UHGV virus genome: UHGV-0068632
Source of the DNA: a virus
Direction: 5' to 3' (one strand)
DNA length: 16,884 nucleotides
Below, piece by piece: positions 2,585 to 16,847 of this stretch (position 1 is the first letter of the stretch; the number at the start of each line of letters is the position of its first letter). Under the pieces are notes generated by a model. It made no database searches. It had not been told where the DNA came from and saw only the letters and a list, made by a program, of their open reading frames with translations. The translations under genes and the position numbers were made by a program.

Positions 2585-4924
2585 ATGGCTACCAGTGTAG
2601 GTACAATTTATTACGAAGTTGATGCAAAAACTGGTCAACTTCTCGTTGCACAACGACAGGCAGACCAGGCCTTTGACCGTATAGAGCGCGGCGCAAAACA
2701 GGCTGACCGCCAGGTAAACACCCTGAAAACATCCATCAAGGCACTGACCAGGGTTATCCATTTGCTAATTGCTGCCGAGGCTGTGCGCCAATTTATGGAT
2801 ATGGCGGAGCAAGCCAAAATGCTTCGCGTAAAAATCAAATTGCTTACAGGTGAAGCGGAGGCAACGGAACGGGTTTTCAACAGACTGAAAGAAATATCAA
2901 AAGAAACAGGCCAAAGCCTCAAGGATACTGGTGCCCTGTGGCAAGGTCTTGCTATATCGCTAAAAAACACATCCGCCACAGAAGGCCAGGTGCTCAACCT
3001 GGTCAGCACGCTGCAAAAACTTGGTAACTTGGGCGGCGTGTCTGCGGAACAACTATCAAACTCCATGCTTCAGTTCCGCCAGGCTATTGATGCTGGCGTG
3101 TTGCAGGCGGAAGAGTTCAACTCAATACGTGATAACACCCCAACAATCATACAGGAAATGGCCCGACAGATGGGGTTATCTATGGGGCAGTTCCGCGCCG
3201 AAATGCTGGACGGCAAGATCACGGCTGAAAGGATGCTCAACGCGATCCAGGCGGCTACGCAGGAAACAAACGAGAAGTTTGCACAGTTACCGCGCACGTC
3301 CGGTATGGCTTTTAATGAGCTTAAAGTCGAGGTGATGGGACTTGTCGAACAACTTGATGATCTTTTCGGCATATCAGATGGCGTTGTGTCAGCTATCGAC
3401 TTAATAACTGGTGGCGTTGAGGGATTAGGTAAAGGCGCAAAATTCGCCGCAACCTGTTTCAATACACTAAAAACGGCTGGCAGTGAGTTTATCGACATGT
3501 TTGATGATGTTGCTGTTAAAGCTGGTGAGGTGGCGGAAGAGATTATCAGGATGGTAACGCCAATCAAAGCGCTAATGGATGGCTACAAATGGATGAAGGA
3601 GATCATTGATAAACGCAAGAATGAGCTAAACAGCAACAACGAAAAGAAATTCGGCCCTACAGTCGGTAAGGTCATGACGTTTGCAAATGACATCAAAAAT
3701 GCGACCGCCGCTTATGATGAGTTTATGCAGAAACAGGGTGAGGCTGATGACGGCAAGATCACCGGATTCGATCAGCCAGTTGGCAAGCCGAAAAAAGGGA
3801 AAAAAGACAAGAAATCTGAAGCTGATCGGCTTGGTGATGAAGGCATAAAAGTATCCGACCAGTACAACAAAGACGCCGCAGCTATGCGCAAAGCGTTAGA
3901 GAACGGCAAGGCCATTGATGCTGCATTCGCCCAGGGTAAAATCACTCTCCTTGAGTACCGCGCCGCGCAAAAAGGGATAGGTAAGGAACTGAAGGAAGAA
4001 TTAGCGCAAATTCCGGTAGATGAATTGCGTGATAAATGGGCGCAAATAGTAAGCCCGATGGATCAGCTTAAAGGTGAGGTTGACCCTATCCAGCAGGTGC
4101 AGAATGAATGGGCCGTCCGTAAGCAAATGCTTATCGACCTGGGCGTTACTGAAGCGCAACAGAAACAGGAACTGTTAGCCTATGAGCAACAGATCCGTGA
4201 TCTGAAGTGGGAACAGTGGCAGGCACAAAGCGATACAAACGGCCTTATCGGTGATTGCGTTAATGGCCTAAAAGGTGGTATGAGCAATGCACTTGTTGGC
4301 CTGTTAAATGGTACTCAATCATTGAGTGATGTTTTTGCTAACTTAGGCAGCAATATCCTCGGGAATATCGGTAACAGGCTTTCAGACATAGCTGCAAACT
4401 GGATAGCAGATCAGATCATGATGGAAACGCAAAGCAAAGCGACTCAGGCAAGTACCACGGCGGGCGCGGTAGCGGCGCAAGGCCAGATTGCTGCGGCGGC
4501 GGCCCCGGCGGCGGCGGCAACAGCGGCGTCAACTGGCGGCGCATGGGCGGCGGCTGGTTCTGCGGCACTCACTGCGATCATGTCGCTGGCTACGTCAATT
4601 TTCGGCGGCGGTCGCTTTAATGGTGGTAGCGTTATTGGTGGCAATATGTACCGCGTAGGGGAACACAACAGGCCGGAGCTATTCCAGACATCTAACGGAA
4701 ATCAATATATGATCCCAGGCGAGAATGGCAGGGTTATTCCTGGGCGTGATATTGGCGGTGGCGGCGGCATTAGTATGCCTGTCAATATCAACATTCAGAC
4801 CACAAACGGATTTAGCGACGAAGACAGTCGCAGACTTGAGCAAACAATGGAACGTGTAGCAATGAAGATGATAACAAGGGAATCACAAAGACCTGGAGGA
4901 ATATTGCAACCGCGCCGCAAATAA
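2585..4924 (+). CDS. Tail tape measure protein, 779 aa
   Basis: Large ORF in the expected position, with RBS gagg 8 nt upstream. Has the mostly helical N-terminal region and the Ala/Gly-rich hydrophobic segment (QASTTAGAVAAQGQIAAAAAPAAAATAAS...) typical of tape measure proteins. Followed by gpM/L/K/I/J homologues. Confidence 0.9.
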   Translation: MATSVGTIYYEVDAKTGQLLVAQRQADQAFDRIERGAKQADRQVNTLKTSIKALTRVIHLLIAAEAVRQFMDMAEQAKMLRVKIKLLTGEAEATERVFNRLKEISKETGQSLKDTGALWQGLAISLKNTSATEGQVLNLVSTLQKLGNLGGVSAEQLSNSMLQFRQAIDAGVLQAEEFNSIRDNTPTIIQEMARQMGLSMGQFRAEMLDGKITAERMLNAIQAATQETNEKFAQLPRTSGMAFNELKVEVMGLVEQLDDLFGISDGVVSAIDLITGGVEGLGKGAKFAATCFNTLKTAGSEFIDMFDDVAVKAGEVAEEIIRMVTPIKALMDGYKWMKEIIDKRKNELNSNNEKKFGPTVGKVMTFANDIKNATAAYDEFMQKQGEADDGKITGFDQPVGKPKKGKKDKKSEADRLGDEGIKVSDQYNKDAAAMRKALENGKAIDAAFAQGKITLLEYRAAQKGIGKELKEELAQIPVDELRDKWAQIVSPMDQLKGEVDPIQQVQNEWAVRKQMLIDLGVTEAQQKQELLAYEQQIRDLKWEQWQAQSDTNGLIGDCVNGLKGGMSNALVGLLNGTQSLSDVFANLGSNILGNIGNRLSDIAANWIADQIMMETQSKATQASTTAGAVAAQGQIAAAAAPAAAATAASTGGAWAAAGSAALTAIMSLATSIFGGGRFNGGSVIGGNMYRVGEHNRPELFQTSNGNQYMIPGENGRVIPGRDIGGGGGISMPVNINIQTTNGFSDEDSRRLEQTMERVAMKMITRESQRPGGILQPRRK

Positions 4925-4927
4925 ACG

Positions 4928-4958
4928 AAACCCCGGTACAATGCCGGGGTTATCTTTT
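4928..4958. terminator. Bidirectional hairpin terminator
   Basis: CCCCGG-tacaatg-CCGGGG at 4931-4949 followed by TTATCTTTT. Lies between the tape measure stop (4924) and the stop of the minus-strand ORF at 4957. Confidence 0.6.
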
Positions 4959-5133
4959 AGTTATTCTCAAAACTTGTATATCCTCTTTCAATTTTCCCGC
5001 CTCTTACACTTCTTGCAAATACTGCATCATTATGTTTGAAAAATGGTTCAGTATATGTGTCTCCTTTACTATCCATCCATTTCACGATCCAGGCTATACG
5101 TTTTACATTGCTTTTATTTGCCTGGTTTTTCAT
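4957..5133 (-). CDS. Small hypothetical protein, 58 aa (MKNQANKSNVKRIAWIVKWMDSKGDTYTEPFFKHNDAVFARSVRGGKIERGYTSFENN)
   Basis: Found by hand; one codon under the track cutoff. Strong RBS ggagg about 9 nt upstream of the ATG at 5133. The overlapping + strand track ORFs 5032-5289 and 5043-5228 lack an RBS and look like low-complexity antisense artefacts. Confidence 0.5.
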   Translation of the reverse strand: MKNQANKSNVKRIAWIVKWMDSKGDTYTEPFFKHNDAVFARSVRGGKIERGYTSFENN

Positions 5134-5151
5134 TTTATTTTCCTCCGCAAA

Positions 5152-5244
5152 TTACAATCTTCCGTTTCTGGCTATATAGCTGCGAGAAAACATCACCAAC
5201 CAAATATTCCAGATCTCCCTCCAGGTGAATTTATCGTCCTCCAT
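5152..5244 (-). CDS. Possible micro-ORF, 30 aa (MEDDKFTWREIWNIWLVMFSRSYIARNGRL)
   Basis: RBS gaggtg upstream of the ATG at 5244 overlaps the TGA stop of the 84-aa gene, and its own stop sits just upstream of the RBS of the 58-aa gene. Very short, so low confidence. Confidence 0.25.
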   Translation of the reverse strand: MEDDKFTWREIWNIWLVMFSRSYIARNGRL

Positions 5245-5251
5245 ACCCACC

Positions 5252-5506
5252 TCACTTATGGCAACCGCGAACGCCAGACAATTCATTGAATTTATGGTGT
5301 TCAACAATCACCCACTCTTTCAGATCCTGGCTATAGACTCGCCAGTCTAAATTGGCGCGGAAGGCGTAGCCGTAACCGTCTTTCAATTTTTTGGGTGACG
5401 CATTCTTGTTTAAAAACGCGTTCAAAAGTTCCTTTGCTTTTTTGACTACATGTCCCGGCGCGTTTTTCTGTGCTTTCAGATTTTTGTCAATCGCTACCAG
5501 TTTCAT
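5252..5506 (-). CDS. Basic 84-aa protein, tentatively RelE/ParE-superfamily-like (candidate toxin or mRNA interferase)
   Basis: Complete ORF in the track. Net charge about +9. The segment KKLKDGYGYAFRANLDWRVYSQDLKEWVIVEHHK resembles, by eye, the beta-strand core and C-terminal His/Tyr region of RelE/YoeB/YafQ-type toxins. This is pattern recognition only, not an alignment. Confidence 0.55.
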   Translation of the reverse strand: MKLVAIDKNLKAQKNAPGHVVKKAKELLNAFLNKNASPKKLKDGYGYAFRANLDWRVYSQDLKEWVIVEHHKFNELSGVRGCHK

Positions 5507-5523
5507 AACTCACCCCATCATCC

Positions 5524-5678
5524 TTAGTTAAGTGCCTTCAGGAAGAAGTCCCGGTATTCATCTTCTTTTGCATTCATCATGAATTGACCGTATTTGAATG
5601 CGTCGTCGAAACCCTTAACGATTGCTATTTCCACTTGTTCGAATGCGTTGTTTAGCATTACCACTACATAGCGTTTCA
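5524..5678 (-). CDS. Small hypothetical protein, 51 aa (MKRYVVVMLNNAFEQVEIAIVKGFDDAFKYGQFMMNAKEDEYRDFFLKALN), possible partner of the 84-aa protein
   Basis: Strong RBS aggagg 6-7 nt upstream of the ATG at 5678. The track's longer 76-aa version starting at 5754 runs through the promoter motif and has no RBS, so the internal start is preferred. Lies 17 nt upstream of the 84-aa gene. Confidence 0.55.
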
Positions 5679-6850: not shown

Positions 6851-7099
6851 CTATAGGTTATCACGCAGATAATTAACGCCTTTGTCAGTGACGAATGAGT
6901 GATTAACCTGGTTTTCATCCGTCATGATGATGAATGACTTTTCCTGTAGGTATTTCGCTTTTGGGTACAGCGTTAAACAGACCTGGTACAGTATCCCGCG
7001 CTCAATCAGCAAATCAATAAATTCGTGCTCATGATAACCGACGAGGCGGGCGGCTTGTTTCAACGTGTACACATAATCGCCGTGATTGCGCCGCCCCAT
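6851..7099 (-). CDS. Hypothetical protein, 82 aa, possible helix-turn-helix DNA-binding protein
   Basis: ORF in the track with RBS aaggcgg upstream. The segment YTLKQAARLVGYHEHEFIDLLIERGIL has the spacing of an HTH motif of the excisionase/AlpA-like type. Judged by eye only. Confidence 0.6.
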   Translation of the reverse strand: MGRRNHGDYVYTLKQAARLVGYHEHEFIDLLIERGILYQVCLTLYPKAKYLQEKSFIIMTDENQVNHSFVTDKGVNYLRDNL

Positions 7100-7108
7100 G
7101 TTGCCGCC

Positions 7109-7456
7109 TTATTTATCGAATGCGCCCAGGTTATCTATGCAGAAGTCTTTCGCAGCTTTTTCGTATTCGCGTTTTGCTTGCGGATCGTCTGCCGGGAAAC
7201 CTTTTGCGTGTATTTCACCAGGGCAAGACTGATCCATAGAATCAGCAAATTCAACATTGACGTTAAAGTTAATATCTTTCGGATTCATGTTTTCCACCTC
7301 ATCAATTATCTGCACCGGATTAGCGGCATATTTCACTGGATGGCCTAAACTACATTCAAGAATCCTTCCTTCTTCCAAAGCTGCCTCTTCGCTATCAAAT
7401 AATCCGAAACACTCCTTGCAACCACTTAACCACACATCAAGACTATATTTTTGCAT
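7109..7456 (-). CDS. Acidic hypothetical protein, 115 aa, cassette 3
   Basis: ORF in the track. RBS gagagg 8 nt upstream of the ATG at 7456. About 23 Asp/Glu against about 11 Lys/Arg (net charge near -12). Contains a CxxC pair (CKEC). No family recognised. Confidence 0.7.
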   Translation of the reverse strand: MQKYSLDVWLSGCKECFGLFDSEEAALEEGRILECSLGHPVKYAANPVQIIDEVENMNPKDINFNVNVEFADSMDQSCPGEIHAKGFPADDPQAKREYEKAAKDFCIDNLGAFDK

Positions 7457-9679: not shown

Positions 9680-12600
9680 ATGAGTAGCGGCGGCGGCAAA
9701 GCAAAAACACCAACTTTAATTAACGATAATCTATATCACAAACAGTTTTATCGTGTACTCGACATTATTTCAGAAGGTCCGATTTATGGTCCTGTTAATA
9801 CCAATGCGCCATTAAACAGCGTAATGCTTAATGACACCCCTGTAACTGACGCGAACGGCAATACCAGCATCCCCGGTATTAGCGTAGCGTGGCGCAATGG
9901 TACGATAGATCAATCACCGATTAACGGTTTTAACGCCATTGAATCAACCGTTATTGTTAACGCACAGGTTAAACACGATACACCAATAATCAGGACCGTT
10001 TCCGATCCTAACGTAAACCGCGTTCGCCTGAATATCGGCGTCGATTCACTTGTACAATCTGACGAGCAAAGCAATCAACATAACACATCGGTTATGATGA
10101 TGATTGACGTGAAGCCTTCGTCTTCTTCTACGTGGACGCTTGTTAAAGACGTTACTATAGGCCCAGGTAAGATCAGCGGAGAATATCTTGAAGCGCATAT
10201 TATCAATGCACCAGATGAAAAACCGTTTGATATTCGCGTTCGCCGTGTAACCGCTGATAGCACAAGCGATCTGTTGCAGAATGATACGCGATGGAGTAGC
10301 TACAGCGAAATAATCGACGATAATTTGTCTTATCCTCACACCGCTGTAGCTGGCGCGGTAATTGACCATGATCAGTACGCTGACACGCCTACCCGCACCT
10401 ATCACCTTCGCGGGCTGATTGTTGATATTCCTGATAACTACGACCCGGAAAAGCGCACTTATTCCGGTTTGTGGCTTGGCGGCTTCAAACAGGCGTACAC
10501 CAATAACCCAGCATGGATCTTCCGCTATCTGGTTAAAAACGAGCGTTTCGGCCTTGCTCGTCACGCTGGCTATATTGACGTTGACGACGGCGCATTATAT
10601 ACGCTTTCTCAATACTGCGACCAGTTGGTTGATGATGGCTACGGCGGCCTTGAGCCTCGCATGACGCTTAACGCTTACATCACAGAGCAAATGAGCGCCC
10701 GCGACTTACTGGACAATATCGCCGGGATGTTCAGGGGTATCGCGTTATGGGACGGGCAACGCCTTACCGTGATGATTGATGCACCACAAGACCCGATCGC
10801 CACCATTACAAATGCAAATGTCGTTGATGGCGCGTTTACTCGTTCAAGTATCGCCCGCGCAGAATGCTACAACGCCGTGATCGTATCATGGACTGACCCG
10901 GAAAACGGATGGGAGCAATCAAAAGAGTATGTAGCAGACGATGAACTGATCGCCCGTGATGGTTACAACGAAACCACGTTAGAGGCGTTCGGGTGCACAT
11001 CACGCGGGCAAGCATACCGCGCGGGCAAGTGGCTGATAGAAACAGCAAAACGCGAGCCGTCAAAATTCACGTTTAAAATGGCGCGTGACGCGATTCACTT
11101 TACGCCAGGGGATATTATCGAGATACTCGACAATAACCGCGCAGGCGCTCGTTTAGGCGGCCGCATCGTTGCGAACAACGGCAAAGTAATAACGGTAGAT
11201 AAGGTTGACGCCAATTATATCGCCGCTGGGGATACAATCAGCCTTCTTGATAGCGATGGCAAGTTTAAAAAGCATCAGATCACCGGGGTGAGCGGAAACA
11301 AAATCACACTGGCGGCGGCCCCGTCATGGATTCGAAACGGCACTGTTTTTGCTGTATCCACTGAATCAGCAAAACCCGTTTTGTGCCGGATCACCAGTGT
11401 AGCCGAAACAGAAAATAACAGCGTGTACACCATCGAGGCCGCACAGCACGACCCGAACAAGCAAGCAGTGGTCGATGAAGGCGCAATATTTGAAGTCAAC
11501 AATGACACGCTTAACCATTTCCGCGTGCCGAACATTGAAAATCTGAAGGTGGTAAACATTGGATCGGAAACAATTCAATGTCGCGCCACATGGGAAACGC
11601 AGACAACAACGCATCGTATGACATTTGAGATCCGCATATATAATGCAGATGGTGCGGTGGTTAAAAGCTATGAAACAACGAAATACAGTTATGATTTTTA
11701 TGGCATTGACGCTGGCGTGTATTCTTTAGGGGTTCGCGGAAGAAATGACACTGGCATGAAGGGCGCGGAAAGTATTGTGGATCTGGTTATTGGTGCGCCA
11801 GCAGCGCCAATAGGTGTTAACTGGGTACCAGGTGTATTTCAGGCTACCGTATACCCGATAAGTAAGACAACGCTAACCACTGATACAGCGTATGAATTCT
11901 ACTATGCAGGGGAAAACCAGATCACAGATCCGGCAAAAATAACCACGGCGGCACAGTTTACCGGGCGCGGGTATCAGTGGACGTTCGGCGGAATGAACAC
12001 GGGCCATACTTATTACGTTTATGTGCGTACACGTAATGCTTTTGGCGTGTCAGACTTCGTTGAAGCATCAGGTAAGCCGACAGAAAATTTTGATGAAATT
12101 AGCGATTACGTCACCAAAGACGTGATGAATTCCGAACAATTTAAAGAAATGGTGGGCGACATTAAGGATCTTGGCGATCGCACTGACATTATCGAAAGTG
12201 CAACTCAAGACCTTAAAACAGCTACTGATACCCTAAGCGGAATAACTGAAGGCTTAAGAACTGATACTGATAATTTAATTACAGAAACAGAATCAATTAA
12301 AGCTGATACTGATTCCCTTAAAAAAGACACTGAAGACCTTTACAAGAAAGTCGAAGAAAACGCCGATGAAATAGGTAAACATGAGGTAAGAATTGACTCA
12401 TTAGAGGTATCAAGCGAAAACGTAGATAATGAACTGGCACAGACAAAAGCAAGCCTACAAAACGCATCGCTTGCTCTTATTAATAATTCGCTTGCTCAAA
12501 CTAATACCAGAAGAACGCTGACAGCTCAGATCAAAAACGTGGATTATGAAACTAAGGCGCAAATAGATCGCATTGATAACGTGATTGTCAGTGAAAAAGA

Positions 12601-14599
12601 AGCAAGAGCGGAGGCAATGGAGACAATTACCGCCGAAATCGACACGATGGATAAAAACATCAAAGGTGAGATTGCGCGCGTAGATACTGCCATTGCCAAT
12701 GAGAGCCAGGCAAGGGCTGATGCCATCAGTGAAGTTAGCGCAAACATTGACGCACTTGATAGTAAAACAGATGCCAGTGTTAATCGTCTTGATCAAGCTA
12801 TCGCAGATGAGGCCAGCGCACGCGCACAGGCTATCAGCAATGTCAATGCGAGCATGACAAATCTTGATAACAAGGTTACAAGCAACGTTTCTAGACTTGA
12901 TCAGGCAATAGCTGACGAATCAAGCGCAAGAGCAGAAGCCGATGATCAGTTAATAGCAAAAAGCGAAAAACTTGATGGTGATCTCGCTATGGCAAGGGCA
13001 AGCCTACAAAACGCTTCGCTTGCTCTCATCAATAATACATTGTCTCAGACAAAGACAAGGCGCACTCTCACAGCGGAGTTCAAACGCGGACAAAGTGAAA
13101 CTAAAGCACAAATTGACCGTATTGATAATGTCATTACTGACGAAAAACAGGCAACAGCGGAAGCGTTTGAAACTATCACAGCAGAAATGAACACGATGGA
13201 CTCAAACATTAAAGGAGAAATATCACGATTAGATAAAGTGATCGCGACTGAAACGCAAGCAAGATCTGAAGCTATAAGTAGTGTTAATGCAAGCATAAAG
13301 ACGCTAGAAAGCGACACTGAAGCCAGCGTTAACCGTCTTGATCAGGCAGTTGCTGACGAGGCCAGCGCCCGCGCACAAGCTATCAGCGGAGTAAATGCAA
13401 GCATCAGCACGCTTGATAGCAAGGTTACAAGCAATGTGACCCGTATCGACAAAGCTATTGCAGATGAGACGCAGGCCCGCACAGACGCAATAAGCAACCT
13501 TAACTCATCGCTTACCAGTACGATTAATTCTAAAGTATCTGAAGTATCAACAGCACTTTCTACGCATGAAGCATCAAGCGCGGAAAAATTCAGCCAGATC
13601 TCAGCGTCTTTCGAAGCTGTAAACTCAAGCATCACGGAATGGTCGCAGACCATGACAACGGCGGACGAGGCATTATCAACCAAAATTGATCAGTTAACAG
13701 TAACCGTTAATGGGAACACAACAGCGATCGAGACGACATCGAAAGCGTTAACCGACTTCAAAGGTAATGTTGATGCGTCATGGTCAATCAAGATTGCTAC
13801 TGATAACAACGGCATGAAATACGCTACAGGTATGTCGCTTGGCCTGACTGGTAGCGGGACTAACGTTCAATCGCAGTGTATTTTCCTCGTTGACCGCTTC
13901 GTGTTAATGACCGCAGCAAACGGCACATATACAACGCCTTTCTATGTGTCTAATGGTGCAATGTATGTGAAAGAAGCGTTTATTAAAAACGCATCAATAG
14001 GTACAGCTAAAATTGCAGATGCAGCCATTACTATGGCTAAAATTGTTAATGAAATAAAATCATCAAACTATGTTGCTGGTTCTAAAGGTTGGAGGATAAC
14101 ACAAAGCGGATCATCAGAATTTAACGATGTTGTGGTAAGGGGCGAAATCCATGCTAATAGCGGTAAATTCAAAGGAACTGTAGAAGCTACATCCTTTGTT
14201 GGTGATGTCGCATCTACTAACGTTATACCGCAATCATCATTCCCTGGGACAAGTACAAGCGGATCTCGATCTGTTACGAAGACGTATAAAGATTCATCAT
14301 CAAGCTCGCTTTCGAAAACAGTTTTCGTAATGATTCCTTACCATCTTACTTATTATACTTATTCAGGATCATCAACAATAAAAGTAACAATTGATATTAA
14401 TGGCAATAGCAAAACATATAACGTAGTAAGGGCGGCATCATCGCCTCAATTCGGATTTACGGTATCACATTGCGTAACTGGGATTACTGCTCAAACAGTT
14501 ACGATAAAAATAACAGAGGAATACACCAACACCGGAACATCAGCAGAAAGAAGGCCAGGTCTTGCACTTGTTACAAGAAGCTCAGGATCATGGTCATAA
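9680..14599 (+). CDS. Tail tip / host specificity protein, lambda gpJ-like, 1639 aa
   Basis: Collinear similarity to lambda J over the N-terminal roughly 800 aa (for example SEGPIYGPV, YHLRGLIVDIPDNYDPEKRTYSG, LSQYCDQLVDDGYGGLEPRMTLNAY, FGCTSRGQAYRAGKWLIETA). Followed by FN3-like segments, a roughly 480-aa repetitive coiled-coil region and a distinct C-terminal domain. Confidence 0.95.
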   Translation: MSSGGGKAKTPTLINDNLYHKQFYRVLDIISEGPIYGPVNTNAPLNSVMLNDTPVTDANGNTSIPGISVAWRNGTIDQSPINGFNAIESTVIVNAQVKHDTPIIRTVSDPNVNRVRLNIGVDSLVQSDEQSNQHNTSVMMMIDVKPSSSSTWTLVKDVTIGPGKISGEYLEAHIINAPDEKPFDIRVRRVTADSTSDLLQNDTRWSSYSEIIDDNLSYPHTAVAGAVIDHDQYADTPTRTYHLRGLIVDIPDNYDPEKRTYSGLWLGGFKQAYTNNPAWIFRYLVKNERFGLARHAGYIDVDDGALYTLSQYCDQLVDDGYGGLEPRMTLNAYITEQMSARDLLDNIAGMFRGIALWDGQRLTVMIDAPQDPIATITNANVVDGAFTRSSIARAECYNAVIVSWTDPENGWEQSKEYVADDELIARDGYNETTLEAFGCTSRGQAYRAGKWLIETAKREPSKFTFKMARDAIHFTPGDIIEILDNNRAGARLGGRIVANNGKVITVDKVDANYIAAGDTISLLDSDGKFKKHQITGVSGNKITLAAAPSWIRNGTVFAVSTESAKPVLCRITSVAETENNSVYTIEAAQHDPNKQAVVDEGAIFEVNNDTLNHFRVPNIENLKVVNIGSETIQCRATWETQTTTHRMTFEIRIYNADGAVVKSYETTKYSYDFYGIDAGVYSLGVRGRNDTGMKGAESIVDLVIGAPAAPIGVNWVPGVFQATVYPISKTTLTTDTAYEFYYAGENQITDPAKITTAAQFTGRGYQWTFGGMNTGHTYYVYVRTRNAFGVSDFVEASGKPTENFDEISDYVTKDVMNSEQFKEMVGDIKDLGDRTDIIESATQDLKTATDTLSGITEGLRTDTDNLITETESIKADTDSLKKDTEDLYKKVEENADEIGKHEVRIDSLEVSSENVDNELAQTKASLQNASLALINNSLAQTNTRRTLTAQIKNVDYETKAQIDRIDNVIVSEKEARAEAMETITAEIDTMDKNIKGEIARVDTAIANESQARADAISEVSANIDALDSKTDASVNRLDQAIADEASARAQAISNVNASMTNLDNKVTSNVSRLDQAIADESSARAEADDQLIAKSEKLDGDLAMARASLQNASLALINNTLSQTKTRRTLTAEFKRGQSETKAQIDRIDNVITDEKQATAEAFETITAEMNTMDSNIKGEISRLDKVIATETQARSEAISSVNASIKTLESDTEASVNRLDQAVADEASARAQAISGVNASISTLDSKVTSNVTRIDKAIADETQARTDAISNLNSSLTSTINSKVSEVSTALSTHEASSAEKFSQISASFEAVNSSITEWSQTMTTADEALSTKIDQLTVTVNGNTTAIETTSKALTDFKGNVDASWSIKIATDNNGMKYATGMSLGLTGSGTNVQSQCIFLVDRFVLMTAANGTYTTPFYVSNGAMYVKEAFIKNASIGTAKIADAAITMAKIVNEIKSSNYVAGSKGWRITQSGSSEFNDVVVRGEIHANSGKFKGTVEATSFVGDVASTNVIPQSSFPGTSTSGSRSVTKTYKDSSSSSLSKTVFVMIPYHLTYYTYSGSSTIKVTIDINGNSKTYNVVRAASSPQFGFTVSHCVTGITAQTVTIKITEEYTNTGTSAERRPGLALVTRSSGSWS
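12449..13546 (+). repeat. In-frame tandem duplication (2 x 549 bp, 183 aa each) inside the gpJ-like gene
   Basis: Unit 1 begins gcaagcctacaaaacgcatcgcttgctctt at 12449 and unit 2 begins gcaagcctacaaaacgcttcgcttgctctc at 12998. The proteins ASLQNASLALINNSLAQTNTRRTLTAQ... and ASLQNASLALINNTLSQTKTRRTLTAE... are collinear. Each unit holds three shorter repeats of about 36 aa of the RLDQAIADEASARAQAIS type. Confidence 0.8.
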
Positions 14600-14606
14600 A
14601 AAATAA

Positions 14607-14632
14607 CCCCGCTTCGCGCGGGGTTTTCTTTT
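14607..14632. terminator. Bidirectional intrinsic terminator between the J-like gene and the lipoprotein gene
   Basis: CCCCGC-ttcgc-GCGGGG at 14607-14623 followed by TTTTCTTTT. Lies 8 nt after the J-like stop codon, and the minus-strand lipoprotein stop overlaps the T-tract. Confidence 0.65.
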
Positions 14633-14879
14633 AGTAGTTAGCTACACAATTCGACGGGCTACCTATGCGGCGCATGTTGTGATCGAGTTCATGACACCAT
14701 TGACCAGTATATGGCAGTTTTTCAGTGTCATATACAAGATGACCATTAGCATCATAGACGATTTCTTGTGGAATCACTCCGCTATTTGGCAGGTTATGCA
14801 ATGCAGCTTCTTTGTCAACAGCGCAACCAGTAAGAGCAACAGCCGCAGCGAATAAAACCACTTTGAACATGTTTTTCAT
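14631..14879 (-). CDS. Small outer-membrane lipoprotein, 82 aa, in the Cor/Llp position (candidate receptor-blocking superinfection exclusion protein)
   Basis: N-terminus MKNMFKVVLFAAAVALTGC has a signal peptide and lipobox L-T-G-C with Ala at +2. RBS gagga 6-7 nt upstream. Encoded convergently just downstream of the receptor-binding J-like gene, where T1/phi80-type Cor and T5 Llp genes are found. Assigned by position and type, not by sequence homology. Confidence 0.7.
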   Translation of the reverse strand: MKNMFKVVLFAAAVALTGCAVDKEAALHNLPNSGVIPQEIVYDANGHLVYDTEKLPYTGQWCHELDHNMRRIGSPSNCVANY

Positions 14880-15056: not shown

Positions 15057-16847
15057 ATGATTTATACAACGGGAACAATTGCCATTAACGGCAATACTGT
15101 TACAGGCACGGGAACAAACTTTTCCGCGCCGCTTTCTCTCATCCGTGTAGGTTGCACGCTCATTGCCATTAGCAATCCTATCCAGATCTTTACCATCACA
15201 GAAATTAAGAGCGGTACTGAACTGTCAGTGACGCCAGCGGCTAACCCTGCAATTGCTGCCGGGGCAAAATTCAGCATTCTGCTTTCTGACTCTATCTCAG
15301 TTGATGGGCTTGCCCAGGATGTAGCGGAAACACTTCGTTTTTATCAGGAAAAAGAAGACGAAATATCCAGCGCAATAGATGGCAGCAATATTGGCTTAGG
15401 TCCAGAGCCGCGCGATTGCGTCGATATATCAGGCGATCCGTCTTCTTACGTTGGCTTTTTGCGCATAAAGGAAACGACTAAGGGTTTTCCTTCTGTAGCG
15501 GCTGGTGAATCATTTTTGAGTGGATTTATCTGTCAACGAGACACGACGCCTTCATATACAGGCGTCTTTGTCGGTTGGGCTACGCGATCACTTTATACGT
15601 ATACATGGGTCGCAACATCAGGTCCGAACTGGACACGACACGCAAGAAAAGATGAGGTGGATAGGCTTGTTCAAAGAACAGGAGAAACTCGCGTACGCGC
15701 TCAAAACGCAAATAAATTCCTTACCGTCTATGATTCAGGATCGTGGGGTTATTATGACTCAGAGGCTAGTAAATGGCTACCGCTTCCAGTTCTTGCTGGA
15801 GGCACTGGTGCGGGAAACGCAGAAGAAGCAAGAAATAATTTAAATCTTGGTGAAAGCAACGCGGTTAAATTCAAAAACCTTACGTTAATAGGGGCGCTAG
15901 ATGCAAATTTAGGCATGCTCGTAAAAACTGGAAGAGACTGGAATACTCAGCACACTGACAATATCCAAAAATTTATACCAATGGCAGGAAGCACAAACGG
16001 ACCCGCCGGAGCAATGGTACTCGGTGGCTTCCATGTGCAATACAGCACAAATTACGCTGTGCAATTCGGGGGTCGAAATTCCGGTTTTTGGGGTAGAACA
16101 ATTGAAAACGGAACAGTTCAGGAATGGCGTCAACTAGCTACGCTTAACACATCCGGTCAAAAATGGACTGCCGGTCAGCATTTTGTGACGACAAAAATTA
16201 ACTCTTATGATTTCACAAGACGTTTAACTATCGATGTGATAGAAAACGCAAAAACAAACGCACGGTTACGCTTATGGGGATCAGAAACAAGGCAGTCCGT
16301 TTTAGAATATGGACTCTCGAACGCTGAAACCGATGAGTATAATACATATGGCTTTTATTGCCAGCTTAACCCAGACGGAGTAATTAGTTTTCAGGTTAAC
16401 GGCGTAGTAAACTGCACAGCAGTTAATCAGACTTCAGATCGCGATCTGAAGGACAACATTCAGGTTATAGGTGATGCAACTGAAGCAATCCGTAAAATGA
16501 ACGGGTACACCTACACCCTCAAGGAAAACGGCCTGCCTTACGCTGGCGTTATCGCTCAAGAGGTAATGGAGGCGCTGCCGGAGGCTGTGGGATCGTTTAC
16601 TCATTACGGTAAAGCATTACAAGGCCCGACCACTGACGGCAACGAGCTACGCGAGGAAACGCGTTACCTCAATGTTGACTACGCTGCGGTGACTGGTTTA
16701 CTTGTTCAGGTGGCACGCGAAACAGATAACCGCGTCACCGAACTGGAGGAAGAAAACGCCAGCTTACGAGCTAACATTGCCGTCATGGATGAGCGGATCA
16801 CAAAACTTGAAGCGCTTGTCAGGCAGTTAACCGGAAGCGAAGAATAA
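15057..16847 (+). CDS. Tail fibre protein with C-terminal intramolecular chaperone (peptidase S74-like) domain, 596 aa
   Basis: RBS ggag 9 nt upstream. The C-terminal roughly 135 aa (TSDRDLKDNIQVIGDATEAIRKMNGYTYTLKENG...AGVIAQEVMEALPEAV...) matches the conserved self-cleaving chaperone module of endosialidase and T5 L-shaped fibre proteins, and ends in a coiled-coil (LEEENASLRANIAVMDERITKLEALV). Confidence 0.85.
   Translation: MIYTTGTIAINGNTVTGTGTNFSAPLSLIRVGCTLIAISNPIQIFTITEIKSGTELSVTPAANPAIAAGAKFSILLSDSISVDGLAQDVAETLRFYQEKEDEISSAIDGSNIGLGPEPRDCVDISGDPSSYVGFLRIKETTKGFPSVAAGESFLSGFICQRDTTPSYTGVFVGWATRSLYTYTWVATSGPNWTRHARKDEVDRLVQRTGETRVRAQNANKFLTVYDSGSWGYYDSEASKWLPLPVLAGGTGAGNAEEARNNLNLGESNAVKFKNLTLIGALDANLGMLVKTGRDWNTQHTDNIQKFIPMAGSTNGPAGAMVLGGFHVQYSTNYAVQFGGRNSGFWGRTIENGTVQEWRQLATLNTSGQKWTAGQHFVTTKINSYDFTRRLTIDVIENAKTNARLRLWGSETRQSVLEYGLSNAETDEYNTYGFYCQLNPDGVISFQVNGVVNCTAVNQTSDRDLKDNIQVIGDATEAIRKMNGYTYTLKENGLPYAGVIAQEVMEALPEAVGSFTHYGKALQGPTTDGNELREETRYLNVDYAAVTGLLVQVARETDNRVTELEEENASLRANIAVMDERITKLEALVRQLTGSEE

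Follow-up and report, generated by a model that had tools for sequence, protein, structure and literature searches.

A predicted self-cleaving chaperone domain on a lateral tail fibre from a temperate E. coli siphophage of the mEpimmI group

The tail module and its phage group

The window (the whole 16,884-nt stretch analysed here, from UHGV virus genome UHGV-0068632) encodes a siphophage tail module, in which PHROG and Pfam searches identified a major tail protein, a tape measure, minor tail proteins of the M, L, K and I types and a J protein. After the minor tail genes come J, a lipoprotein gene on the opposite strand and a tail fibre gene. DNA of the Escherichia phage MagusPhagus covers 81% of the window at 93.5% identity, and the window is 84-86% identical at the DNA level to mEp010, 013, 021, 044, 515 and 554. 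The mEpimmI group comprises Nus-dependent, non-lambdoid temperate coliphages from human faeces (PMC11893012), and the window is the tail module of a temperate E. coli siphophage of this group, recovered from a human gut metagenome. Related prophage segments are present in 294 of 5426 complete E. coli genomes.

The tail operon is broken at 1335-2324, 5252-5506 and 6851-7456 by small genes on the opposite (-) strand; these sites follow the major tail protein region and the tape measure gene or separate the M-like gene from the L-like one. Most of the small genes belong to families without known function (phrog_1848, phrog_5689, phrog_38567), one is annotated in a relative as a KilAC antirepressor-domain protein, and together they look like moron-type insertions in the structural module.

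The central fibre and the lipoprotein gene

The first-pass annotation had described a J-like central fibre accompanying the side fibre, and such a protein is indeed encoded upstream, at 9680-14599 on the + strand. This J-type central tail fibre or tip attachment protein (1639 aa) matches phrog_31 ('central tail fiber J') and carries five gpJ-type Pfam domains above their cut-offs (FNIII-A_GpJ, Phage-tail_3, Ig_J, Ig_J_second and Phage_Tail_Tip). Terminal receptors, LamB or OmpA, have been assigned to J variants of the mEpimmI phages (PMC11893012). Between its Ig domains and Phage_Tail_Tip, the protein holds two copies of a stretch of about 179 aa (residues ~913-1091 and ~1096-1274, 69% identical; window positions 12416-13501), which is Ala/Ser-rich and apparently coiled-coil-like, with motifs of the type 'RLDQAIADE.SARA.AIS'. 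In MagusPhagus (1478 aa) and in E. coli 09-00049 (1442 aa) the J protein falls short by roughly the length of one copy, and a spacer of variable length would alter how far the central fibre reaches.

A perfect bidirectional hairpin terminator (14605-14625) lies between J and the lipoprotein gene. The latter (14631-14879, - strand) encodes an 82-aa product that matches phrog_12984 ('lipoprotein', E = 4e-27), has the lipobox LTGC and is 91% identical to mEp044_110, with identities of 91-98% across mEp044 and MagusPhagus. Type-C superinfection-exclusion lipoproteins have been reported in LamB-using mEpimmI phages (PMC11893012), and the likeness of its sequence to these relatives suggests a probable role in superinfection exclusion for the product encoded here. 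In mEp021, a 311-aa FlgL-like 'virion structural protein' is encoded between J and the fibre (4742-5677, - strand); the window lacks this gene and has the lipoprotein gene alone in the interval, so the gene content of the locus varies within the group.

A lateral tail fibre with conserved ends and a variable middle

The fibre gene (15057-16847, + strand) encodes a side (lateral) tail fibre of 596 aa, chaperone domain included, and the last nucleotide of its TAA stop codon is 16847. The PHROG search assigned the protein to tail-fibre families (best match phrog_6578, E = 1e-156), with baseplate wedge families among the weaker matches, and an NCBIfam search of the fibre returned no match. A protein of 100% identity, P0112, carries the name 'tail protein [Caudoviricetes sp.]' and originates from human gut metagenome assemblies. 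The phages mEp044 and MagusPhagus, as well as E. coli prophages, carry orthologues at the corresponding locus, and the mEp021 orthologue (gp82) is listed in GenBank as a 'tail structural protein' and also noted as a 'putative tail tip protein'. A 'tail tip protein' is among the proteins identified by mass spectrometry in the mEpimmI study (PMC11893012), whose text and supplements give no band sizes or peptide coverage for the mEp021 fibre orthologue. The assignment to the lateral fibres draws on the position of the gene 3' of gpJ, an anchor conserved at the far N-terminus, variability in the rest of the protein and homology with lateral fibres already known.

Downstream, no terminator was found in the 37 nt between the stop codon and the window end; in mEp044, one is annotated after the fibre gene. 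On a longer contig carrying P0112, the next gene is an integrase 276 nt 3' of the fibre, and the prophage of E. coli 09-00049 ends with the fibre gene, beyond which lies the interrupted host abgT. A separate Tfa-type chaperone gene 3' of the fibre was considered and rejected, as the integrase comes next. With the integrase (or, in the prophage, host abgT) directly following the fibre, there is no separate fibre-assembly gene at this locus, which lends indirect support to a chaperone acting in cis.

The N-terminal 460 residues had been expected to hold the attachment and binding domains, and this division is upheld by a conserved attachment module followed by a variable, presumably receptor-binding body. 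The attachment (anchor) module spans residues 1-108 (15057-15380, + strand), which are 88-90% identical in the fibres of mEp021, mEp044 and MagusPhagus, the bodies of these fibres being unlike. It also matches residues 4-109 of Klebsiella siphophage depolymerases at E = 2e-22, namely Depo32 (GH-K3; 7VYV/7VZ3) and DpK2 (RAD2; 7LZJ), and in the depolymerase literature the matching N-terminal domain tethers the protein to the tail. Residues 109-459 (15381-16433, + strand) form the shaft and the presumed receptor-binding distal part, which vary among relatives. For example, relative to the 854-aa fibre of mEp044, the protein is the same minus an internal block of 257 aa.

Relatives have fibres of 449 to 1160 aa at this locus, every one of them ending in an S74 domain. 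At the DNA level, identity to other mEpimmI fibres rises above 85% again from 40-92 nt before the codon for Ser460, the first residue of the chaperone. On the strength of these conserved ends, the range of lengths and the point at which DNA identity resumes, the sequences indicate that the anchor and chaperone are conserved cassettes around a swappable middle. The BASEL studies found the same pattern in the lateral fibres of small siphophages (Drexlerviridae) and T5-like phages, where such fibres bind O-antigen as a primary and often dispensable receptor. It had also been proposed that the phage has two receptor-recognition devices, and it is reasonable to infer that J and the fibre would play these roles, since J variants have terminal receptors of their own, the fibre follows the BASEL lateral-fibre pattern and the lipoprotein is 91% like that of the LamB-using mEp044.

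The C-terminal Peptidase_S74 domain

The last 137 of the 596 residues (460-596; 16434-16847 including the stop codon, + strand) constitute a C-terminal intramolecular chaperone domain of the Peptidase_S74 family, in a protein with tail-fibre homology throughout. Pfam PF13884 (Peptidase_S74, 'Chaperone of endosialidase') matches residues 460-511 over profile positions 1-57 of 58 (E = 1.5e-14), scoring 54.4 bits against a gathering cut-off of 22, and the same family is precomputed in public databases for P0112. The domain opens with the motif SDRDLKDNIQVIG at residue 460, whose Ser codon is TCA (16434-16436). The first-pass annotation had begun it at S-DRDLKDNIQVIG, a start now confirmed at residue 460, and its interval of 16434-16847 proved exact, because the TAA stop codon ends at 16847. 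Membership of the chaperone family, for which a Pfam search had been advised, is supported jointly by PF13884, by profile comparison with solved chaperones and by the predicted fold. When residues 437-596 were used as the query, 111 homologues were recovered, nearly all of them with PF13884.

Ser460, Asp461, Lys465 and Gly497 are invariant across 40-41 aligned homologues of 25-90% identity, and an alignment of 40 of the 111, 30-90% identical to the query, shows all four unchanged. Together with the Pfam E-value, these invariant residues rule out a chance resemblance to S74. Ser460 is the predicted nucleophile of a scissile site at Thr459/Ser460 (16431-16436, + strand), placed there from the invariance of the Ser, the alignment of the SD.r.K motif and the corresponding Thr1263-Ser1264 of T5 pb1. 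Lys465 (16449-16451, + strand), likewise invariant and five residues after the Ser, is the predicted general base of a Ser-Lys pair. The conserved Ser named in the first reading is thus present, and its S-x4-K spacing is that of Ser-Lys pairs, five residues apart, that self-cleave in endoNF (S911/K916), MyRF (S587/K592) and T5 pb1 (S1264/K1269), the MyRF pair having been proven by mutagenesis (PMC8326128, PMC4690869).

Profile comparison with solved structures retrieved the long tail fibre gp37 of S16 (6F45, E = 5e-22), the MyRF ICA domain (7DC3, E = 9e-15), a phage tail fibre (8JOV, E = 6e-12) and a neck appendage protein chaperone (3GUD, E = 5e-5), with the SD..(L/I)K motif aligned between the fibre profile and all four. 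The 3GUD chain as deposited begins with the residues SDERHK. T5 pb1 and endoNF were not reached by single-sequence or profile searches of solved structures, even at E <= 10, and are linked to the fibre chaperone only by comparison of folds.

The Arg 'folding sensor' that stands 14 residues before the Ser in endoNF (R897) and T5 (R1250), and is contributed by the neighbouring chain, has no counterpart here: position -14 is Gln446 and is variable among homologues. R412, the majority residue in the fibre alignment consensus, might be a candidate replacement for this sensor, and the trigger for cleavage may differ from that of endoNF and T5, given Gln446 in place of Arg. The missing Arg is no argument against cleavage or S74 membership, since MyRF also does without it.

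One homologue, a metagenomic protein of 673 aa that is otherwise 73% identical (P0188), has Glu at the Lys465 position (SDRDLEDNI), and the catalytic Lys is kept in all 29 other sequences of its alignment. Either an error in sequencing or a natural variant defective in processing could account for the substitution.

Predicted fold of the chaperone

An AlphaFold2 monomer model of a 160-residue C-terminal fragment, built from a diverse alignment, reached a mean pLDDT of 91.3 and comprises a small alpha/beta body, a long beta-hairpin and a 51-residue terminal helix, which is the characteristic S74 fold. The hairpin, or 'tentacle', is predicted at residues 511-540 (16587-16676, + strand), with strands at 511-524 and 530-540 (fragment positions 75-88 and 94-104), and the chaperones of T5 pb1 and endoNF carry one as well. 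The C-terminal helix covers residues 542-592 (16680-16832, + strand; fragment positions 106-156) and is predicted to form a trimeric coiled coil; its block pLDDT is 95-98 over most of its length, and in the best register 11 of the 14 heptad a/d positions are hydrophobic.

A full-length AlphaFold2 model based on 30 close homologues was discarded, as its mean pLDDT was 60 and fell below 50 in the chaperone region because the alignment was short of diversity. Foldseek searches with that model gave TM scores of at most 0.16, which are noise.

Maturation of the fibre and alternative readings

In the published relatives, cleavage is restricted to the assembled trimer and the mature end lies directly before the Ser (PMC8326128, PMC4690869). 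Trimerisation of MyRF is driven by its C-terminal coiled coil. The mature T5 pb1 fibre ends at Thr1263, the Ser being released with a 133-residue chaperone, and uncleaved T5 pb1 S1264A is stable; this mutant fails to compete for the receptor, which implies that the binding tip becomes unmasked on cleavage. As the Thr459-Ser460...Lys465 arrangement is that of T5, templated folding of a trimer followed by cleavage at Thr459/Ser460 is the best-supported model for the fibre studied here.

On this model, the fibre would be synthesised as a 64.9-kDa precursor and its C-terminal 137-residue chaperone would align three precursors in register, the helices at 542-592 forming a trimeric coiled coil and the tentacles at 511-540 probably packing on the distal fibre domain, where they would template intertwined beta-structure. 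Once the fibre tip has folded, Ser460, activated by Lys465, would cut the Thr459-Ser460 bond, freeing a 15.2-kDa chaperone and leaving a mature subunit of 49.8 kDa (residues 1-459). Masses computed from sequence are 64.91 kDa for the full fibre, 49.77 kDa for residues 1-459 and 15.16 kDa for S460-E596 (137 aa), in agreement with the initial estimate of a loss of about 15 kDa and a mature end near residue 460 (predicted here at ~459/460). The mature trimer would attach to the tail via residues 1-108 and meet a primary, probably glycan, receptor with its distal tip, while J would deal with the terminal outer-membrane receptor. It is by homology that we infer trimerisation, cleavage, the exact scissile bond, the absence of the chaperone from virions and the type of receptor. 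The explanation as a whole, a lateral fibre of an mEpimmI-group siphophage whose S74 chaperone folds the trimer and then cleaves itself off, is given a probability of roughly 0.86.

Several other readings of the same data were weighed against it. The S74-like domain might be a permanent trimerisation or foldon module that stays uncleaved, in which case the virion would hold the full 65-kDa protein, possibly capped at its tip. The absence of the endoNF/T5 Arg sensor at the equivalent position (Q446) and the stability of the uncleaved T5 pb1 mutant are compatible with this, and the Glu that replaces the catalytic Lys in P0188 indicates that non-cleaving variants may exist. However, the invariance of Ser460 and Lys465 over 40 diverse homologues would be difficult to account for if they had no catalytic role, each of the four structurally matched relatives cleaves itself, and the failure of uncleaved T5 pb1 in receptor competition implies that retention would probably block function, making a permanent module unlikely. 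Along similar lines, the chaperone could be kept as a removable cap over the binding tip, with cleavage acting as a regulated host-recognition switch and variants such as P0188 being permanently capped or differently triggered, although we consider this idea very improbable. It is also very unlikely that the cut falls C-terminal of Ser460, giving a mature protein of residues 1-460 and a released fragment that starts at Asp461: the density cited for such a cut is described as less convincing, the Ser departs with the chaperone in both T5 pb1 and the K1F endosialidase, and the chaperone chain of 3GUD starts SDERHK.

A different question is whether the protein is a side fibre at all or some other tail-tip or baseplate component that carries an S74 domain. 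The note of 'putative tail tip protein' on the mEp021 orthologue and the weaker PHROG matches to baseplate wedge families lean that way, and no electron microscopy of fibres is reported for the mEpimmI group. Against these stand the homology of the body to the L-shaped lateral fibre of a T5-like phage, the match of the N-terminus to depolymerases that are siphophage tail appendages, and the location of the gene 3' of J, the usual site of siphophage lateral fibres, with conservation confined to the far N-terminus as in the Drexlerviridae of the BASEL studies. A tail-tip or baseplate role is therefore the least probable of the readings considered, and a self-processed lateral fibre remains the preferred one.

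Implications

Chaperones of this type were found in 1052 of 50,697 phage records, and a search with the full-length fibre returned 2393 proteins at E <= 1e-5. Some RefSeq homologues at the locus are named 'pyocin knob domain-containing S74 family peptidase', and one source uses 'L-shaped tail fiber protein' for a homologue. The presence of an S74 chaperone on the fibre is accordingly correct but ordinary, already known in kind and caught by routine annotation. Neither 'S74' nor 'chaperone' occurs in the text of the mEpimmI paper (PMC11893012), and for that group naming the domain is at most a small improvement in annotation.

For practical purposes, annotation should give residues 1-459 (about 50 kDa, predicted) as the virion protein rather than the 65-kDa product of the open reading frame. 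The C-terminal domain would be needed in cis for folding if the fibre were expressed or grafted onto another phage. The fibre is a mosaic of a Klebsiella depolymerase-like anchor, a body like that of T5-type L-shaped fibres and a conserved chaperone cassette. It provides a tidy case of receptor-binding-protein module exchange between temperate gut phages and virulent phages, though not one that is new in kind.

Comparison with known systems

The fibre chaperone resembles that of T5 pb1 in the Thr-Ser pair at the cleavage site, the S-x4-K spacing and the tentacle, although identity in the structural alignment is only 13%. The two proteins differ in length (1396 aa for pb1 versus 596 aa here), in the type of N-terminal anchor and at position -14, where pb1 has the Arg that the fibre lacks. 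The endoNF of coliphage K1F (PDB 3GW6) is the type member of Peptidase S74, but it is a podophage tailspike enzyme of 13-15% identity whose Arg897 sensor is not conserved in the fibre. The top sequence match among solved structures is S16 gp37 (PDB 6F45), in which SSDRRIKKDI is aligned to SDRDLKDNI; it is the fibre of a T4-like myophage and has an unlike body. The MyRF ICA (PDB 7DC3) shares the absence of an upstream Arg sensor, but belongs to a eukaryotic membrane-bound transcription factor and stays on the membrane after cleavage.

Closer likenesses are found among phages of E. coli. The mEpimmI fibres (mEp044_112, MagusPhagus CDS0019 and WP_065225624) are orthologues at the same locus whose middle, receptor-binding parts have been swapped or deleted, and that of MagusPhagus is 92% identical over its last 160 residues, the chaperone included. 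The conserved Ser is S717 in the mEp044 fibre and S1023 in that of MagusPhagus. The nearest relative found outside this group is the L-shaped fibre of the tequintavirus slur09 (YP_009202114, 1272 aa), which is 58% identical over residues 388-586 (199 residues), a stretch that takes in SDR.LK.NI and the chaperone in full. In the shaft, another two blocks show 46-52% identity, and the chaperone-coding DNA is 85% identical over 80 nt. The shaft of the fibre described here also carries the repeat motif 'GGTGA....ARNNL', of which the slur09 fibre has several copies. This likeness in sequence suggests that temperate and virulent coliphages have exchanged genes. As an idea more modest than that of the removable cap, the near-invariant chaperone cassette and the anchor may serve as homology arms, through which temperate gut phages could swap receptor-binding middles with virulent T5-like phages. 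The two phages differ in lifestyle and fibre attachment, as slur09 is a virulent phage of 112 kb whose fibre is attached via a collar protein encoded by an adjoining gene. Compared with the slur09 fibre, the one described here has half the length and another N-terminus.
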